A stretch of 64,000 bases of DNA. It comes from an uncultured Clostridia bacterium (GTDB lineage: Bacteria; Bacillota; Clostridia; TANB77; CAG-508). The position numbers and the translations under genes were made by a program. Below are positions 1 through 58,270 of this stretch, piece after piece (position 1 is the first letter of the stretch; each line of letters begins with the position of its first letter). The notes under the pieces were generated by a model. The model worked only from the letters and a program-made list of their open reading frames with translations, made no database searches and was not told where the DNA came from. The stretch covers positions 17,446-81,445 of the forward strand of contig CANPZY010000001.1 of the NCBI GenBank assembly GCA_947588945.1, read 5' to 3'.

Positions 1-72
1 GCGAATGGAGCGCTGAAATGAAATTTCAGCTAGCGACAGCAAGCCACAAAAAGCATTATATTTTTATTTTGC
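1..72 (+). repeat. GC-rich hairpin-embedded repeat, copy A (5' part cut off by window edge)
   Basis: Begins GCGAATGGAGCG, then a perfect hairpin CTGAAAT-gaa-ATTTCAG, then CTAGCGACAGCAAGCCAC and an AT-rich arm. Same order as the copies at 5184, 14931 and 25970. Confidence 0.7.
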
Positions 73-4922: not shown

Positions 4923-5070
4923 TTAATCACCTACTTTTCTTATGATGAATTTATGCTACCATTTTTGTCGAAAAAAGTCAAAAAAAATTATGTCTATTGA
5001 CTATTAATTTTACAGTATTTTCAATACTTTGATGGTATTGTTACAAATATGTTACAATTTGTTTTTTTGC

Positions 5071-5116
5071 AAAAAAATAAACATAATTCCTTATTTCAAA
5101 ATTATGTTTATTTTTA
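5071..5116. terminator. Bidirectional intrinsic terminator
   Basis: ATAAACATAAT / ATTATGTTTAT 11-bp stem with an A-run before and a T-run after. Confidence 0.55.
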
Positions 5117-5183
5117 CTGTAAACTTATTTGAACTATTAATTTGCAATAATATAAAAATATATATAATCTATAAACATATAAA

Positions 5184-5305
5184 ACAAATAAAAATACAAT
5201 AGTTTGCAGTTGTGCGCAGCGACCAAGCGTAAGCGCGAATGGAGCGATAAAACTTTTGTTTTATCTGCGACAGCAAACAACAAAAACTATTGTATTTTTA
5301 TTTGT
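5184..5305 (+). repeat. GC-rich hairpin-embedded repeat, copy B
   Basis: Perfect 22-nt inverted arms (5184-5205 and 5284-5305) enclose a 78-nt GC-rich core. The core contains AAGCGCGAATGGAGCG, the hairpin ATAAAAC-tttt-GTTTTAT and CTGCGACAGCAA. The element lies 13 nt beyond the spoIIQ-like stop. Confidence 0.85.
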
Positions 5306-5317
5306 ATTTTATTTTTT

Positions 5318-6172
5318 TTATTTTATATATATATCCGGATTAACATATTCTCCATCTTTTAGGATTTCAAAATGCAAATGACTTCCATCAAGAGTTTCAA
5401 ATACAGCTGAATTTCCAACTGTTCCAATTGATTGACCTTGTTGAACTTCATCCCCTTCTTTTACAAATTCTGTACTAAGCAAGCTTGAATATACAGTTTG
5501 AAATCCATTTTTATGATCTATTGTTATACTTAGTCCATATCTAGGATCTTCTTTTATATATTTTACAGTTCCTGAAGCTGATGCTTTTACAACTGTAGTT
5601 TTATCTGCTTTTATATCAATTCCTCTATGAGTAATCCATTCTTGAAGCGTATTAGAATAAGTTAAACTATCCATTGAATAACTTGTTATATTTTCTCCAT
5701 CTACTGGCTTTATAAATTGATCTTGAGCCTGATTTTCACCTGTAGCATTTTTATTTGATGTATCCTTTGCGTTTGGATTAAGTTCATCTTCATCATTATT
5801 TTCTTTATTTGTGTTACTGTTATTATTTGAATTATTTTCAGTTACTTGATTATTATTAGTATTTTCATTATCTTCATTTGATTCATTAGTAAAAACTTGA
5901 TTTTGTATCACATTTTCAGAATCACCAGTTGCATTGGTATTTACATTTGTATTATTTTTTATTTCTTCTCTAATTTCATTTACCGTTCTACTAAATTCTG
6001 AACTTGTTTGTTCTACTATTGTTACATTCCTATTTATTTTTGCTTCTCTTGTGGCCTTTTCTTCATTTGCTGATAAAACTATTGCTATTAATAGTAAAAA
6101 AATGGATATTAAAAATCCCGTAATACTAAGCCATTTTTTATTATTTTTTTCTTCATTTTTTCTTTCTCTCAT
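5318..6172 (-). CDS. spoIIQ: M23/LytM-domain sporulation protein, SpoIIQ-like
   Basis: N-terminal TM segment, an N/E-rich linker and a C-terminal M23 domain with HRGIDI and HLHFE metal-ligand motifs. It sits directly downstream of spoIID. I prefer the ATG at 6172, which has an AGGAGG RBS. Confidence 0.7.
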   Translation of the reverse strand: MRERKNEEKNNKKWLSITGFLISIFLLLIAIVLSANEEKATREAKINRNVTIVEQTSSEFSRTVNEIREEIKNNTNVNTNATGDSENVIQNQVFTNESNEDNENTNNNQVTENNSNNNSNTNKENNDEDELNPNAKDTSNKNATGENQAQDQFIKPVDGENITSYSMDSLTYSNTLQEWITHRGIDIKADKTTVVKASASGTVKYIKEDPRYGLSITIDHKNGFQTVYSSLLSTEFVKEGDEVQQGQSIGTVGNSAVFETLDGSHLHFEILKDGEYVNPDIYIK

Positions 6173-6312
6173 ATATATCCTCCTAAAAAATTTCTTAATT
6201 GAATTATTTCCATTTTTTAGGCTTATATACATTTATTTACAAATAAAATTGACATATATAATTAATACACAAAAAAGAATATATACACATATAATAACCA
6301 GAAAATCACTAC

Positions 6313-14930: not shown

Positions 14931-15057
14931 TACAATAAAAATAGTTATAATTCTGCAGTGGCGCGTAGCGCTCAAGCAAAGCGCGAATGGAGCGAAAGTG
15001 ATGAAATCACTTTCTAGCGACAACAAGCCACAAAAAATTATAAGTATTTTTATTGTA
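14931..15057 (+). repeat. GC-rich hairpin-embedded repeat, copy C
   Basis: 22-nt inverted arms (14931-14952 and 15036-15057, one mismatch) enclose an 83-nt core. The core contains AAGCGCGAATGGAGCG, the hairpin AAAGTGAT-gaa-ATCACTTT and CTAGCGACAACAAGCCAC. The element ends 9 nt from the uvrC stop. Confidence 0.85.
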
Positions 15058-25969: not shown

Positions 25970-26085
25970 AAAAAATAATTTAACTCTTCTTGCCTTCGTT
26001 GTCGCTAGAAATTTGCAAGCAAATTTCGCTCCATTCGCGCTTCGCTTGAGCGTTACGAAGTCTGCGTAGAGTTAAATTATTTTTT
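25970..26085 (-). repeat. GC-rich hairpin-embedded repeat, copy D (inverted orientation)
   Basis: 18-nt perfect inverted arms (25970-25987 and 26068-26085) around an 80-nt core. The reverse complement of the core carries AAGCGCGAATGGAGCG, the hairpin AAATTTGC-tt-GCAAATTT and CTAGCGACAACGAAG. The element starts 7 nt after the engB stop. Confidence 0.85.
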
Positions 26086-38362: not shown

Positions 38363-38437
38363 TACTCCTTTCTCAAAAATACTTTACTTTAATATAAAAA
38401 TTTATTAGCTCACATTTCTTTATTTATATTTATATTT

Positions 38438-38545
38438 TTATCTTTATTCTTTATATTTCTATTTTTTGTTTTATCTTTATTTTTTATATTTCTTTTTCTA
38501 TTTTTTATCTTATCTTTATTTTTTATATTTCTTTTTCTATTTCTA
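38438..38545. repeat. AT-rich tandem repeat (about 3 units of 33-39 bp) between mraY and ftsW
   Basis: The 33-mer TTATCTTTATTTTTTATATTTCTTTTTCTATTT is identical at 38471-38503 and 38510-38542. A diverged unit starts at 38438. Confidence 0.8.
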
Positions 38546-38558
38546 TTTTATTTATATT

Positions 38559-39536
38559 CTATATTACTAATATTCCTATAACTGAGGCAATAAGTGTTAT
38601 TATGCTAAATGTTGAAACTATTTTATTTTCTTTCCATCCCATCATTTCAAAATGATGATGAATTGGAGCCATTTTAAATAATCTTTTCTTTGTTTTTTTA
38701 TAATATGCAACTTGTAATATTACAGATAATGTTTCTATAATTGGAACTATCGCAATAATAAGTAATAATAATGGTAATTTAAGAAATAGTGAAATTCCTG
38801 CAATTGCACCGCCTAAAAGTAATGATCCTGTATCTCCCATAAATATATGTGCTGGATGCAAATTAAATAACAAAAATCCTAATCCTGCCCCTATTACTAT
38901 ACATCCAAAAATTGTTGTTTCCTTTACTCCCCAAATTATTGAAATTACTGTAAGACAAGTCAAAATTATTGTTGTTATACTTGTTGATAATCCATCTATT
39001 CCATCTGTTAAATTTACTGCATTTGTTGTTCCTAGAATTACTACAATTGCAAAAGGAATATAAATCCAAACTGGCAAAGTTATATATTGTTTTATAAAAG
39101 GTATATAGATGTCTGTTCCATTTTTAAATTGAAATACTAACATTAAAACATAAATTAATGATATTAGGAAAAGTCCAATCATCTTTGTTTTTGGTTTAAT
39201 TCCATCTGTGTTTTTTAATATTACTTTTTTAAAATCATCAATAAATCCTATAATTCCAAATCCTATTGTAACAAATATCATCGGTAATAATCTTGTGGCT
39301 ATTTCTGGTTCATCTGCAGAATAATCAATATATAAAAATGCACTTAACAGTAATGTAGATATTATTAAAATAAGTCCACCCATTGTTGTTGTTCCTTTTT
39401 TTCTAAGATGGCTCTTAGGCCCATCTTCTCTTTCCGACTGTCCAACTCTTAATTTTCTTAATGTAGGTATTACTATTATTGATATGATTACACTAACTGC
39501 AAAGGATAATAGCAATATCTTTATTTGAAAGCTCAT
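38559..39536 (-). CDS. mraY: Phospho-N-acetylmuramoyl-pentapeptide transferase MraY
   Basis: 325 aa, polytopic, with NAVNLTDGIDGL and HHHFE. Confidence 0.95.
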   Translation of the reverse strand: MSFQIKILLLSFAVSVIISIIVIPTLRKLRVGQSEREDGPKSHLRKKGTTTMGGLILIISTLLLSAFLYIDYSADEPEIATRLLPMIFVTIGFGIIGFIDDFKKVILKNTDGIKPKTKMIGLFLISLIYVLMLVFQFKNGTDIYIPFIKQYITLPVWIYIPFAIVVILGTTNAVNLTDGIDGLSTSITTIILTCLTVISIIWGVKETTIFGCIVIGAGLGFLLFNLHPAHIFMGDTGSLLLGGAIAGISLFLKLPLLLLIIAIVPIIETLSVILQVAYYKKTKKRLFKMAPIHHHFEMMGWKENKIVSTFSIITLIASVIGILVI

Positions 39537-39615
39537 TAGTTTTCCCCCTTAAATTCCGGTTAGATTAATCTTAATTTTTATTTTATATATACTTTTTTAT
39601 TATTTCTATTTATTC

Positions 39616-39680
39616 ATCTTTATTTTTTTTATCTTTATTTCTTTTTATTTATCTTTATTTTCTTATATTATCTTTATTTA
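39616..39680. repeat. Short tandem ATCTTTATTT repeats between murE and mraY
   Basis: ATCTTTATTT occurs at 39616, 39631, 39651 and 39670 (period 15-20 nt). It has the same core as the arrays at 38438 and 50497. Confidence 0.7.
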
Positions 39681-41174
39681 TTTGTCTTACTTCTTTCTTC
39701 AATAATCTCATCTATTAAATCTCTTACTATTATTCTTTCATCATAAGGATTTTTCACGTGATTAATTTCTTGATAGGTTTCATGTCCTTTTCCAGCTAAA
39801 ACAATAATATCCTCTTTATTTGCCATCATTATTGCTTTTTTTATTGCTTCTGTCCTATTTACTATACATTCATATTTTCCATTTGTCTTTTTTATTCCTT
39901 CTTCAATTTGTTTAACAATAGAATCAGGATTTTCAGTACGTGGATTATCTGATGTAATTATTGAATAATTAGCAATTCTTCCAGATATTTCACCCATAAT
40001 TGGTCTTTTTCCGCGGATCTCTATCTCCTCCGCAACCAAATACAGATATAACTCTTCCTCGTGTATATGCTTTAACCGCTTGAAGAATACTTTGTAAACT
40101 CTCTGGTGAATGTGCATAATCTAACATTATCGTTAAATCTAATTTATTATCTACAAGTTCACTTCTCCCTGGAACTCTAACTTCTTCTAAAGCTGACTTT
40201 ATATTTTCTGTATCACAGCCTAATCTTTCTGCAACACATATTGCTGCTAAACTATTATACACACTAAATCTTCCTGGTATAAATGTTTTTATTCTTTCAT
40301 TTTTTCCGTTTAACTTTACTCTAAAATCAACATAAGAATTTGTGATTGTAATATCTTTTGCAAGTACATCACACTCATTATCAATTCCATAAGTTTTTAA
40401 ATCACATTCTGGAACTAATTTTGGCAATCTTAATACATTATAATCATCTATATTTATAAATCCAACTGGACACATTTTAAATAATTTTGCTTTTGAATTA
40501 AAGTAATCTTCCATATCTGGATGTTCTTTTTCACTAATATGATCTTCTGAAAAGTTTGTAAATACACCTATATTAAAGTCACATCCATCTACTCTATGTA
40601 ATTTAAGACTTTGTGATGAAACTTCCATAACAACAGCTTTACAATTTTCTTCTACCATTTTTGCAAATAAACTTTGTAATTTTATGCTATCTGGAGTTGT
40701 TCTATCACTATCTTCTAATTTTTTATCTCCAATATACGTTGCAATTGTTCCTATAAGCCCTGTTTTTATACCTTGTCTCTGTAAAATTTCTTTGATCATA
40801 AATGTCGTTGTTGTTTTTCCTTTTGTACCTGTTACTCCTATTAATTGTACTTTTCTTGATGGATTATCATAAAAGTTACAAGCACTTTTAGCCATTGCAA
40901 TTCTTGTATCCGGTGCAGATACTATCGTAACATTTTCTGGTATAATTTTTATAAAATCTTTTGCCCTATCCTCATTTAGTAAAATCGCTTTAGCCCCTGC
41001 TTTTATTGCATTTTCAATGTAGTCATGTCCATCTACTTCAAAGCCTTTTACAGCTATAAATAAATCTCCTTCCTTTATCTCTCGTGAATCACTAGCAATA
41101 TTAGGTATATCAAGTTCTAAATTTCCCTTTGCTTTTAAACCTTGCAACCCCATTAATATATTTTTTAATTCCAT
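39674..41174 (-). pseudogene. murE: UDP-N-acetylmuramoyl-tripeptide synthetase MurE, split by an apparent +1 frameshift
   Basis: ORF 39990-41174 ends ...FGCGGDRDPRKKTNYG*. ORF 39674-40117 continues RGKRPIMGEISG.... The junction reads GAT CCG CGG AAA AAG ACC (plus strand 40006-40019). Removing one A or one C restores the MurE motif GGDRDxxKRPxMG. Confidence 0.88.
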
Positions 41175-50496: not shown

Positions 50497-50812
50497 ATTT
50501 TTATCTTCTGTTCAAATTTTTCTTTCGTAATATTTTTTTATTTTATCTTTTGAACTTTTTTCTTTTGTGAAATTTTTCTTTTCATTTTATCTTTTGTTTA
50601 AAATTTTTTACTTTATCATTTGTTCATATCTTTCTTTAGTTAAATCTTTTTTCATCTTTTCTTTGGTTAAATCTTTTTAAATTTTATCTTTTGTTCACTT
50701 TTTTCTTTTGTTTAAATTTTTTTAATTTTATCTTTTGTTCATTTTTTTCTTTTGTTTAAATCTTTTAATTTTATCTTTTGTTTATCTTTTTCTTTTGTTG
50801 AGATTTTCTTTA
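50497..50812. repeat. Tandem array of about 7-8 units of 43-44 bp in the mraZ-rsmH spacer
   Basis: The unit is ATTTTATCTTTTGTTCAyTTTTTTCTTTTGTTTAAATyTTTTTA. Unit starts lie at 50497, 50540, 50584, 50681, 50725 and 50768, with two degenerate units in between. Confidence 0.85.
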
Positions 50813-53737: not shown

Positions 53738-56700
53738 TTATATAACAAATCTTTTAATTATCAATGCTCCAATTCCTACAATTAGTATTGTTCCTGCTAT
53801 TAAAGAAATATATATTGGTGCTGATCCAGTTACTACTGTTAATACTACTGGTGCATCATCTATATCATCTTCCCCATCTTTCTTATTATTTGGTGTTGAG
53901 TCTATATCTGGTGTATCTGATGGGTTATCATCTTCACTTATTTCTGCTACATTGACCTTCTGACTTAAGTTATTTTCATCATTTATCCATGTTAATGTTA
54001 CTTCTATTGTTGCTGTCTCTCCTGGTTGTAATAATGTGTCTTTTAATTGATCTGTTACTATCTTTCCATTTTCTTCTTTCCATTTTGGATTATCTGCTTG
54101 ATTGAATTTTAATCCTTCTGGTATATAGTCTGATATCTCTGTTGCGTATCCTTCTATCTCTCCTTCATTCTTTATCCTTATTTGATATCTAAACTTGATT
54201 ATTGTGTTTTCTATTCTCTTTTTGTTTAATTCTACCTTTACTACTGGCTCTGGATCTTGTTCTGCATAATGCCCTGTATCCATCTCTTTTTGTACACCAT
54301 CTTCTATTAATATTACTTGACTTACCCATTTCCTTAAGCTTAAATCAAAGTATTTTACATATACTTTTTCTGTATCTTCGTCATCTTCACCTTTCCATTC
54401 GTCCGGTGTCGAATCTTCATCATCTACATCATTTCCATTCTTATCTGTATCTTTGCTTATCTCTGCATGGTTCGTAATTATTCTATCTTCTGTATTTGGC
54501 ATTTCTATTTTAAATGCTACTTTTACATCTCTATAGTCTGGCACGTCCATTGTCTCTCTATCATAGCCTTTTAGTAAGTTTTCTCCTTCTGTTTGTTCTT
54601 TTTCCTTTGATAGATAATCTGTTCTTATTGTTACTGCTTTTTTTACATCTGTTGTTACATTTCCTTCTTCATCATATAATACCCAGCCATATTCATTATT
54701 TATTTCATTGTCTTCTACAAACTCTAATCCATCTGGTATATCATCCTTTATTTCTGCTGCATATCCTGATTTTGTTCCTTCATTATATACTCTTATTGTG
54801 TATATTACTATATCATTTTGACTTACTCTTACTGGTTCTTTTGTATGTTCATAAGTCATTGATGTTATTTCTTTTCCATCCTCTATTGTTCCATATTTTG
54901 ATGTATCTACTCTTGGTATTCTATTTGTTATTTCTTCATCATTGACGCCTGTTATAAACTTTCTTAATGCCAAGTCAAATTTTTCTAAAATTAGTTTTTC
55001 AAAATCATCATCATCTTCTTGTCCTTCATAATAGTAGTCTGAATCTGACAAATCATCTTTATTTGTATCTTTACCTTTATAATTTGGTAAATCTTCATCT
55101 TGTGGTAATATTACATTCTTTTCATTATCTCTATCAACTAAGTTTTCTTCATTACTGCTCTTTGTAATATCAGCTATATTAGTTATTGTTTTTTGAGTTT
55201 GTGCTGTCTTTACAACTCTACATCTTACTTGTATGTCTTTATATGATAACTCACCACTATCTCTGTTAAATGATACTATTATGTTATCTGTATCATGATC
55301 TTTTGATAAATACGTTGTTCTTATAGTTCTTTGAGTAGCATCTGCACTATCTAATAACCATAAATATCTTTGATTTAGCTCATCATCAGGTAAAAACTCC
55401 AATTCTGGTGGTAAATGATCAACAATTTCATCTGCATATCCATCTACTTGTCCCTCATTATATATTCTTAATGTATATGTTACTATATCACCTACTGATA
55501 CACTAATTGGAACTTTTGTATGTTTGTATTTAGCTGTTTTTTCTCCATTTAAAAGTGGTGAAACATCCACTACTGGCTCTCTATCATATTTTCCGTTTTT
55601 ACTTAACTCTACTCCATTTACTTCAGTAATAAATTTTCTTAATGCTAAATCAAAATATTTTCCAGGTAGCACTAAATCTTCATAATCATCATCATCTTCA
55701 TAACCTTTACCTTGTGTTGAAGTTCCAGGATTGTATGAATCCTTTTGATTATCTGTTAAATTATTTGGCTGTGAATCTCTATCTTGTGCATTTTCTGCAT
55801 TATATGCACTTGTTATTTCTGCAACATTTTTTAAATGCTTGTCTGTTGATTGAACTTCTGCATTAACAATACACTCAACTTGTAAATCTTTATAATCTAT
55901 TGTATATTTTCCGTCAGCTCCTGCTGTTTTATTAAATGCTTTTATAATATTATCTTTATTATCTTCTTCGTCAGTAGCTCCCTCATTGTACTTGCCATCT
56001 TTATATTTTCTAGACAAATATTTAGTTCTTATTATTTTTGCATTATCAGCATCTGCTTGCCATCCATACTGAGCATTTATTGTACTTTGGTCAGCTGGAA
56101 CTAAACTTAATCCATCTGGTAAATAATCCATTATCTCTTCTGCATAACCATCAATTTCGCCTTCATTATATACTCTAATTGTATAAACTACTTTATTACC
56201 TGTTTTTACTGATATTGGATCTTTTGTATGAGTTTTTGTACTTGTTGTTCCATTATCTAATATTGATGTTCCATTTGTTGCTAATGCTCTAAGGCTTTCC
56301 TGTGTAATTTCAGGTTCTCTTGAAGGTGATACAGGGTTTCCAGCAACCTGTGTTATAAATTTTCTTAAACTTAAATCAAACTTAGGTTTTGCTATTTGTT
56401 TTGTATCCTCAACAGAAAATTCTTTATCTGTTTTTTCTATTATAACAACTGGCTGATTAGTTTCTACAGATGATTCAGGAGTAGACCAATATGTTAATGT
56501 CTTAACTTCTTTCTTACCTGAAATTTTTATATTAACATTATTTGCTGAAGTTCCAACAGGTAATTTTATATAAAATTGTTCATCTAAAACTGAATTAACT
56601 TTATCAGTAATCGTACTTCCACTAATCTCAGATTTATCTGCCTTAACTAATGTAACATTATCATTTTCTTTATTATCAACTAAAATTTTTACATTAAAGT

Positions 56701-57787: not shown

Positions 57788-58222
57788 TTAGGCTGTTTTG
57801 TTTTTTAATGCCTCGAACAACTCTTCTTCGGACCATTCGAAGCCATTTTCTTTTTCATTTTCGGGATCAATAAGTTTCGCTAATTCAGTTGCTGAGTATA
57901 TTTTTTCAGCTCTAATTTTCATATTGACTACATTCATAAGCTTTTCAATGTACTTTGACAAATCTTCTGTAGTCTTTTTTATTTCTTCTAGATAAGCTTC
58001 CTTATCTGACATATAAAAAGCTGTTAGTAATGCTTCTGAATATAGCAATTGTTTCTCTGGGTTATCAGAAATCTTCATAATTTCGTTCCAGTCCCTACGA
58101 GTTAACTTTTTAATACCCTCAGCCCATTCAAGAGTTTCTTTTAAATACTCCTTCTTTCTGTAAGCCCCACTTTCCGGGCATCTCACAATCGCGCCTACCC
58201 GGCCACTGTCTGTCTTACTCAT
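57788..58222 (-). CDS. Hypothetical helical protein (144 aa) with atypically high G+C
   Basis: ORF with RBS AAAGGAGAGGGAG. The 5' part reads GACAGTGGCCGGGTAGGCGCGATTGTGAGATGCCCGGAAAGTGGGGC, unlike the surrounding AT-rich DNA. No family recognised. Confidence 0.6.
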   Translation of the reverse strand: MSKTDSGRVGAIVRCPESGAYRKKEYLKETLEWAEGIKKLTRRDWNEIMKISDNPEKQLLYSEALLTAFYMSDKEAYLEEIKKTTEDLSKYIEKLMNVVNMKIRAEKIYSATELAKLIDPENEKENGFEWSEEELFEALKNKTA

Positions 58223-58270
58223 GTTGCTCCCTCTCCTTTGTTTAAAATAAGTATCTCTACTCTATAAAAT

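Follow-up and report, generated by a model that had tools for sequence, protein, structure and literature searches.

The spoIIQ-veg spacer and copy B

The stretch of DNA analyzed here (the window; 64,000 nucleotides, 26.5% G+C) carries a gene for an M23 peptidase (PF01551) preceded by spoIID (PF08486), a position for which the label spoIIQ-like is reasonable. Downstream of this gene lie a long palindromic element, which we call copy B, then a terminator hairpin, and then veg (Table 1). The preliminary description of the locus had reported perfect 22-bp arms around a 78-nt GC-rich core, and the exact complementarity of the arms bears this out: ACAAATAAAAATACAATAGTTT and AAACTATTGTATTTTTATTTGT are reverse complements over 22 nt each, and a repeat search extends the pairing to 33 nt with three mismatches. 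On the + strand, the first half of the element reads ACAAATAAAAATACAATAGTTT, GCA, GTTGT, GCGCAGCGACCAA, GCGTAAGC and GCGAATGGAGC, and the second half reads G-ATAAAAC-TTTT-GTTTTAT-C, TGCGACAGCAA, ACAAC, AA and AAACTATTGTATTTTTATTTGT. The GTTGT/ACAAC inner helix (P2) and the ATAAAAC/GTTTTAT apical hairpin (P4) claimed earlier are likewise present, differing in their letters from those of other copies but still paired. In copy B, one G-C and one Y-R pair (5216-5217 with 5272-5273) lengthen P2.

The core is among only six 60-nt intervals of the window with at least 50% G+C. Folded as RNA, copy B reaches -47.7 kcal/mol (z = -7.5), which none of 200 shuffles equalled; folded as DNA it reaches -33.1 (z = -7.4 against shuffles). 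Indeed, RNA and DNA folding of both strands gives z of about -7, far beyond the shuffled sequences. The strand that reads GCGCGAATGGAGCG, hereafter the G strand, is the + strand in copy B and is antisense to spoIIQ.

Table 1. Coordinates, in the window, of the palindromic element and its surroundings; P1 to P4 are the helices of copy B
Feature	Position	Strand	Remarks
Copy A	1-68	+	cut by the window start; genome position C1:17398-17513
Copy B	5184-5305	+	after spoIIQ
Copy C	14936-15052	+	orthologous spacer of G007, G021, G004 and G030 is without the element
Copy D	25971-26084	-	between convergent genes
spoIIQ-like M23 peptidase gene	5318-6232	-	insertion starts right behind its stop codon
Whole insertion relative to the empty allele	5125-5317	-	193 nt: 13 nt AT-rich, 122-nt palindrome, ~58 nt unique AT-rich
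Ancestral spoIIQ terminator	5073-5115	-	16-bp AT hairpin (5073-5088/5100-5115), then a T run
Outer arm P1, + strand 5' side	5184-5205		perfect over 22 nt; to 5173 at 91%
Outer arm P1'	5284-5305		perfect complement of 5184-5205; to 5316 at 91%
GC-rich core	5206-5283	+	segment found inverted between the arms in another strain
Inner helix P2, 5' side GTTGT	5209-5213	+	partner ACAAC at 5277-5281
Helix P3, mini-hairpin GCGTAAGC	5227-5234	+	GC stem, GTAA loop
Unpaired junction strand GCGAATGGAGC	5235-5245	+	invariant in the 41 host-genome copies; at least 95% conserved in the 64-copy cross-species alignment
Apical hairpin P4, G-ATAAAAC-TTTT-GTTTTAT-C	5246-5265	+	letters variable, pairing constant
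Junction strand TGCGACAGCAA	5266-5276	+	invariant; consensus T(A)GCGACARCAA

A family of interspersed palindromes in one genus

Copy B is one of four family copies in the window. In the host genome (1.40 Mb, 42 contigs), the motif GCGCGAATGGAGCG with up to two mismatches has 44 matches, and its reversed control has none. There, a covariance model derived from six copies recovers 41 full copies (75-136 bits) and 4 degenerate ones, and decayed and half copies exist besides the full ones. All 41 full copies are intergenic, nearly all of them 6-50 nt from a stop codon.

The copies follow a common plan. The arms are AT-rich, with a mean length of 21 bp, and are perfect in 18 of the 41 host-genome copies; their sequences are copy-specific, with only a loose AT-rich similarity inside subfamilies. 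Between the arms and P2, every copy has an internal loop of 3/2 nt. P2 is 5 bp long (GTATC, GTGGC, GTTGT and others), with one G-C pair and a covarying Y-R pair added to it. It leads into a three-way junction bearing two hairpins, the small P3 and the variable apical P4, and the strands common to all copies are AGCG, GCGAATGGAGC and T(A)GCGACARCAA.

When 60 relatives were searched with the covariance model, matches were found in 19 of the 37 genomes of the genus (host included), with 1-53 copies in each of those 19, and the 24 genomes from the order's other families gave none. Scanning species genomes with a pattern placed the family in MAGs of uncultured Clostridia from rabbit and human (Hadza and Nepali) guts. 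Rfam gave no match at gathering score over the 64 kb and only chance matches at E up to 10 around copy B; ARAGORN found no tRNA or tmRNA; viral contigs, phage records and plasmid records searched with the element gave no match; and a literature search found no description of the repeat family. We file it as a bacterial interspersed palindromic repeat confined to a single genus of uncultured gut Clostridia with small genomes.

Copy B is an insertion upstream of an ancestral terminator

The preliminary description had also placed an ordinary terminator about 70 nt beyond copy B and had proposed that the element may not be needed to end spoIIQ transcription. The terminator is real: it is the 16-bp AT hairpin of Table 1, conserved in sister species, among which its stem shows a compensatory change (aaacat/atgttt vs agacat/atgtct). 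A simple terminator scan requiring three G-C pairs reported no terminator, and it is only this requirement that makes it miss the hairpin. In G007, G006, G021 and G004, gtttaca..aaaaatagacataatt..aattatgtctattttt comes immediately after the spoIIQ stop codon and is the same terminator as in the window. The same terminator follows after 26 extra bases in G023 and after about 90 in G033, and in none of these genomes does an element lie between the spoIIQ stop codon and the terminator.

Closer comparisons came from contigs of other samples that encode an identical Veg protein (L160 to L165). At the copy B locus, L160 and L161 are identical to the window. In L162 and L165, the site is exactly empty (..atatataaaaTAA|gtttacag.., with nothing between). 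In L164, the insertion and its private flanks are those of the window, but everything between the arms is exactly reverse-complemented. L163 has the same flipped core, but its left flank is a fold-back assembly artifact. Because sister species and two near-identical strains pass directly from the stop codon to the conserved terminator, this terminator is ancestral and copy B was inserted upstream of it: the element entered the spoIIQ-veg spacer right behind the stop codon, and the locus is polymorphic among strains, with the element present, absent or flipped.

The empty allele also disposes of two ways in which the palindrome might have been built in place. Insertion of the core into the loop of a pre-existing terminator hairpin is rejected, as the empty allele is without arms, and so is copying of the arms from the target, as they are unlike the empty-site sequence. 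The ~58-nt AT-rich part of the insert has no further copy anywhere in the genome. AAATAA stands at both borders of the 193-nt insert and may be a target duplication or a microhomology, although at this one site a chance occurrence is possible in DNA of 26% G+C. Further strains looked up gave no second clean empty site for comparison.

Apparent long arms of 68 nt in L163 were likewise rejected, the entire left flank being the reverse complement of the right flank; the contig (ena:ERZ27249363 NODE_44547) is short, of low coverage, and folds back on itself at the element. Another contig, L170, ends inside a copy. The repeat gives assembly breaks and fold-back artifacts in MAGs, as well as new hairpins behind genes.

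A long stable hairpin right after a stop codon is what an intrinsic terminator would look like, perhaps a bidirectional one or a duplicate recruited for spoIIQ. Moreover, TTATTTTTTTTA stands behind the arm on the + strand, and decayed, core-less skeletons of the element (see below) resemble AT terminators. However, the tail after the arm on the spoIIQ transcript strand is ATATGTTTATAG, which holds no U-tract, and T is not enriched after the arms family-wide (about 5 of the 10 nt that follow, on either strand). The ancestral terminator 70 nt later suffices in strains and species that lack the element. In addition, one copy lies in the spacer of the rpoB-rpoC operon, where an efficient terminator would be harmful. 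A role as terminator is accordingly very improbable, and the earlier proposal that spoIIQ does not depend on the element holds: the conserved terminator is present wherever the element is missing, in sister species and in two strains, so that spoIIQ terminates without copy B. The element would then be a passenger in the spoIIQ 3' UTR that adds at most a stabilizing hairpin, with the old terminator ending transcription.

Copies flip, exchange parts and decay

A sister MAG, Lapin-028__bin79, has flanks 88-98% identical to those of the host, and the flanks of its copies were mapped onto the host genome. About 24 sites are shared, 14-15 with the core in the same orientation and 10 in the opposite one, as called from short-read MAG assemblies in which the arms (20-31 bp) are shorter than typical final k-mers. 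In four flipped sites inspected by eye, the inversion takes in the internal-loop bases and ends within the arms; at one flipped site, BLAST itself gives a reversed HSP.

DNA segments bounded by inverted repeats and found in both orientations are familiar as invertons (fimS, Hin, Bacteroides promoters). Copy B resembles them in occurring both ways round at one site, in strains as in sister species, by an exact inversion between inverted repeats, and a site-specific recombinase might in principle vary the 3' ends of some 40 transcripts in a programmed manner. In an inverton, however, the repeats are a conserved recombinase site, whereas the arms here differ from copy to copy and so hold no common site. 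The segment contains neither promoter nor gene, and its 78 bp are very short for recombinase synapsis. No recombinase gene adjoins copy B, and the copies are dispensable. Of all the explanations considered, we give this one the least credence.

Orthologous copies can differ by a double compensatory change in P3 (GCGAAGC vs ACGAAGT) or by carrying a different P4 module. A few P4 and P3 modules recur with different arms, from which it follows that copies exchange parts. P4 loops occur as TT or AA (CTTG vs CAAG), and these swaps look like a miniature spacer inversion, the same process at a smaller scale.

Copies are also lost. Two sites occupied in Lapin-028__bin79 are decayed in the host genome: at C11:21425-21443, only a 16-nt remnant, TTTGCAGTTGTGCGCA, is left, and at C2:~1760-1830 there is a core-less skeleton, arms plus P2 around a 7-nt loop, that resembles a plain AT terminator. 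In turn, Lapin-028__bin79 has one copy with P4 deleted. Family members are thus gained, lost, decayed and inverted among close relatives, and decaying repeats may seed new terminator-like hairpins.

Four half copies (C7:8967, C18:8879, C20:18557 and C4:49192) break at the base or apex of P4, and all abut a stop codon. Three are left halves ending at the identical base (…GCGCGAATGGAGC|, GGAGC|), beside the stop codons of relA, rpoB and an SNF2 helicase gene; the remaining one is a right half that begins in the P4 3' arm just past another stop codon. In transcript direction, what is retained always lies 3' of the P4 apex, and a full copy follows every half copy (4 of 4). The rpoB-rpoC spacer (C18:8716-8892) is an example, holding a full copy and a left half copy that starts at the rpoB stop codon itself (TAG|GGCTCC...). 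The breakpoint GGAGC| could be a cleavage site or reflect breakage at the center of the palindrome.

An invariant junction with a DNA-type mini-hairpin

The junction strands are unvaried across species in the 64-copy alignment, and the P3 stem covaries (GC..GC, AC..GT, GCAC..GTGC, GGGC..GCCC, GTGC..GCAC). Read on the G strand, P3 has a GNA or GNNA loop with a C-G closing pair in 70 of 88 distinct copies; in most of the longer loop variants, a hairpin of the GNA/GNNA type is nested. On that one strand, P3 fits the mini-hairpin DNA consensus GCGNAGC/GCGNNAGC. Such hairpins are extraordinarily stable as DNA and much less so as RNA, and they occur at single-strand priming and initiation sites (the phage G4 origin, ssiA and the N4 promoters) (PMC13037366).

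The orientation of the core is biased. In 35 of 44 copies (about 80:20), the G strand runs antisense to the gene at whose stop codon the element lies, and the same antisense bias is seen in 22 of 28 copies between co-directional genes. If each genome stood at an 80:20 equilibrium, 32% of shared sites would be expected to differ in orientation; 40% do, which indicates that flipping is fast and that the bias is maintained. Biases of replication and of transcription are inseparable here, since gene strand and GC skew coincide and only one copy is informative. The host genome has a very strong GC skew (about +/-0.2), with 85-90% of the coding length on one strand per contig. An invariant core and a bias of about 80:20 despite fast flipping imply selection or a directional process beyond a purely selfish neutral model.

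Pairing is of the kind given by a DNA palindrome

Covariation was assessed in a 64-copy cross-species alignment fitted to the covariance model. Standard pairs make up 97.2% of pair cells, compared with 59% after shuffling, and changes on both sides occur at 35 of 36 pairs, including all five pairs of P2 and all 8 of P4; the Y-R pair is UA in 47 copies and CG in 12. RNA under selection usually tolerates many G.U pairs. Here, wobble accounts for 1.5% of cells, with 32 G.T against 14 A.C among 2170 on the G strand, and the arms and P2 of the host-genome copies show 6 G.T and 5 A.C, their remaining mismatches being mostly A.A or T.T. Near-exclusive Watson-Crick pairing, equal on both strands, is what a DNA palindrome gives.

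These numbers bear on whether the family might be a structured RNA, a cis-acting 3'-UTR module or a set of small RNAs whose stem and junction are selected in the transcript, for instance for mRNA stabilization, protein binding, or action as a ribozyme or riboswitch-like element. Very strong covariation in all five helices and invariant unpaired junction sequences speak for such a family. The confinement of GNRA/GNA loops to one strand would suit RNA as well as DNA, G.T exceeds A.C about 2:1 on the G strand, the elements lie in transcribed 3' regions just past stop codons, and their orientation is biased. However, about 80% of copies have the strand with the GNRA/GNA loop antisense to the gene beside them, and the core flips at the same site between strains and between sister species. 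The element is absent from half of the genus and from near-identical strains, copies decay by deletion, wobble pairs are scarce, and Rfam has no counterpart even at E = 10. We consider a family of structured RNAs improbable. Taken together, the Watson-Crick pairing, the T content behind the arms, the copy between rpoB and rpoC and the polymorphism speak against a terminator as well as against a dedicated RNA gene. Presence/absence polymorphism, core inversion, decay, Watson-Crick pairing and a patchy distribution within one genus favor a mobile DNA repeat over the stable RNA of about 120 nt implied in the preliminary description.

Proposed template switching and a putative recognized core

Copy B is probably the insertion of a non-coding, non-autonomous mobile palindromic DNA repeat, a passenger as far as spoIIQ is concerned, whose arms and core are shaped by template switching and whose core is possibly recognized by a factor. 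Template switching between short inverted repeats homogenizes the arms and reversibly inverts the spacer (PMC8604942; PMC8794818). Polymerase switching between the two arms during replication would do the same to the element. It would leave arms that are perfect within a copy yet different between copies, together with multi-base compensatory changes and flips. Perfect arms, Watson-Crick "covariation" and core inversion, as products of such switching, would not be evidence for selection on an RNA fold. The strong helix covariation of this family probably has that origin, which calls for caution in comparative discovery of non-coding RNAs.

The match to the published Ripley model of template switching extends to perfect arms, multi-nucleotide compensatory changes and a reversible spacer inversion, although the spacers reported there are of a few bases, as against 78 in the element (PMC8604942, PMC8794818). 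Template switching is a mutational process and not an element family, and it leaves the dispersal and the invariant core unexplained. A putative trans-acting factor might recognize the invariant junction and mini-hairpin on the folded G strand, most likely as single-stranded DNA, and so copy or move the element. Propagation would then be limited to copies whose junction is intact, and this would explain why the core alone is conserved. The stable fold of the G strand may also be lost faster from the lagging-strand template, giving the orientation bias.

A bolder form of this proposal, to which we assign a small but real chance, is that the three-way junction and mini-hairpin form a folded single-stranded module read by an enzyme new to bacterial repeats, with the core specifying recognition and the arms left free. 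The enzyme may be an ssDNA structure-specific nuclease, a transposase, a primase or a relaxase. If this were true, it would be the reverse of the logic of MITEs and REPINs, the break at GGAGC| would mark the cleavage site, and the element, gripped at its core by a new enzyme, would represent a new class of mobile DNA. Another possibility is that some 40 transcripts have their 3'-UTR structure toggled by the flip-flop of the core.

RAYT transposases accompany the REP, BIME and REPIN sequences of Proteobacteria (PMC3116915, PMC3337134, PMC8266576). A REP/REPIN-type element moved by a RAYT (Y1 HUH) transposase acting on an ssDNA hairpin would fit a high-copy intergenic hairpin repeat at gene ends with a strand-specific, ssDNA-type mini-hairpin, and some genomes of the genus do have Y1 genes. 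The distribution of the two, however, argues against it. PF01797 (Y1/RAYT) has no match in the host genome (G000; 90.6% complete). G002, G021, G030 and G033 carry 6-23 copies each and no Y1 gene, whereas G012 and G022 lack the element but have strong Y1 genes. Taken over the genus, Y1 occurs in 9 of 19 element-bearing genomes and in 10 of 18 element-free ones. The architecture is also reversed, in that REPINs have conserved arms and a free spacer, whereas here the arms are copy-specific and the center (AGCG, GCGAATGGAGC and GCGACARCAA) is invariant. Movement by a RAYT is thus quite improbable.

Relation to known repeats

Our preferred reading, a mobile DNA repeat, finds its nearest relatives in function among the REP/REPIN, ERIC and MITE repeats. 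Like REP, BIME and REPIN sequences, the elements are short non-coding palindromes, present in tens per genome, intergenic at gene 3' ends and hairpin-forming; they are also lineage-specific and vertically persistent. In contrast to REPIN-RAYT systems, there is no RAYT in the host genome, there is no co-occurrence across the genus, and the host is a low-GC Firmicute MAG lineage.

The enterobacterial ERIC (IRU) sequences, among other palindromes of that group, are about 127 bp long, imperfect, located in transcribed intergenic regions in either orientation, and polymorphic in presence. We know of no transposase for ERIC and of no reported inversion of its core. Our element shares with ERIC a similar size, a long imperfect palindrome, a place in transcribed intergenic DNA in either orientation and presence polymorphism; it bears no sequence relation to ERIC, which is conserved over its whole length and has no three-way junction. 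MITEs (Correia/NEMIS, RUP, bcr1) have conserved terminal inverted repeats matching an IS transposase and clear target duplications. The element is MITE-like as a small non-autonomous insertion with inverted ends and insertion polymorphism that sometimes supplies hairpins to transcripts. Its termini, however, are variable, and a self-BLAST of the genome revealed neither a multi-copy IS transposase nor a parent IS, the repeats found being pilin-like gene families, a serine recombinase and other non-IS genes. It thus works most like these three kinds of repeat while lacking what defines REPIN-RAYT systems and MITEs. Finally, it is like mini-hairpin DNA sites in that P3 has the consensus on one strand in most copies, but, unlike them, it could not be linked to priming or to the origin of a phage or plasmid, and it had no match in the phage, plasmid and viral collections searched.

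Interspersed palindromic repeats are well studied in Proteobacteria and hardly at all in uncultured small-genome gut Clostridia. The family described here is an unusual combination of copy-specific perfect arms, an invariant junction, very frequent inversion, no RAYT and an ssDNA mini-hairpin motif.

Other features of the window

A G+C island (60%, 58141-58249) spans the leader and the 5' end of an open reading frame of 144 aa on the minus strand (57788-58222); an Rfam search of it at E up to 0.1 gave no match. Direct tandem repeats rich in T, with a period of about 12-44 nt, occur at 38414-38563, 39582-39682 and 50517-50797; they are probably repeats of low complexity in coding or spacer DNA. 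At 54105-56380, three to four paralogous segments follow one another in tandem at intervals of about 615-708 nt (families D1, D3 and D10 of the repeat search), which looks like a tandem gene family on the minus strand. Beyond the spoIIQ terminator, alignments across the genus show conservation of the veg promoter region and of a "aaattgtaacatatttgtaaca" box upstream of veg (5029-5058 and 4942-4981); this may be a regulator site.
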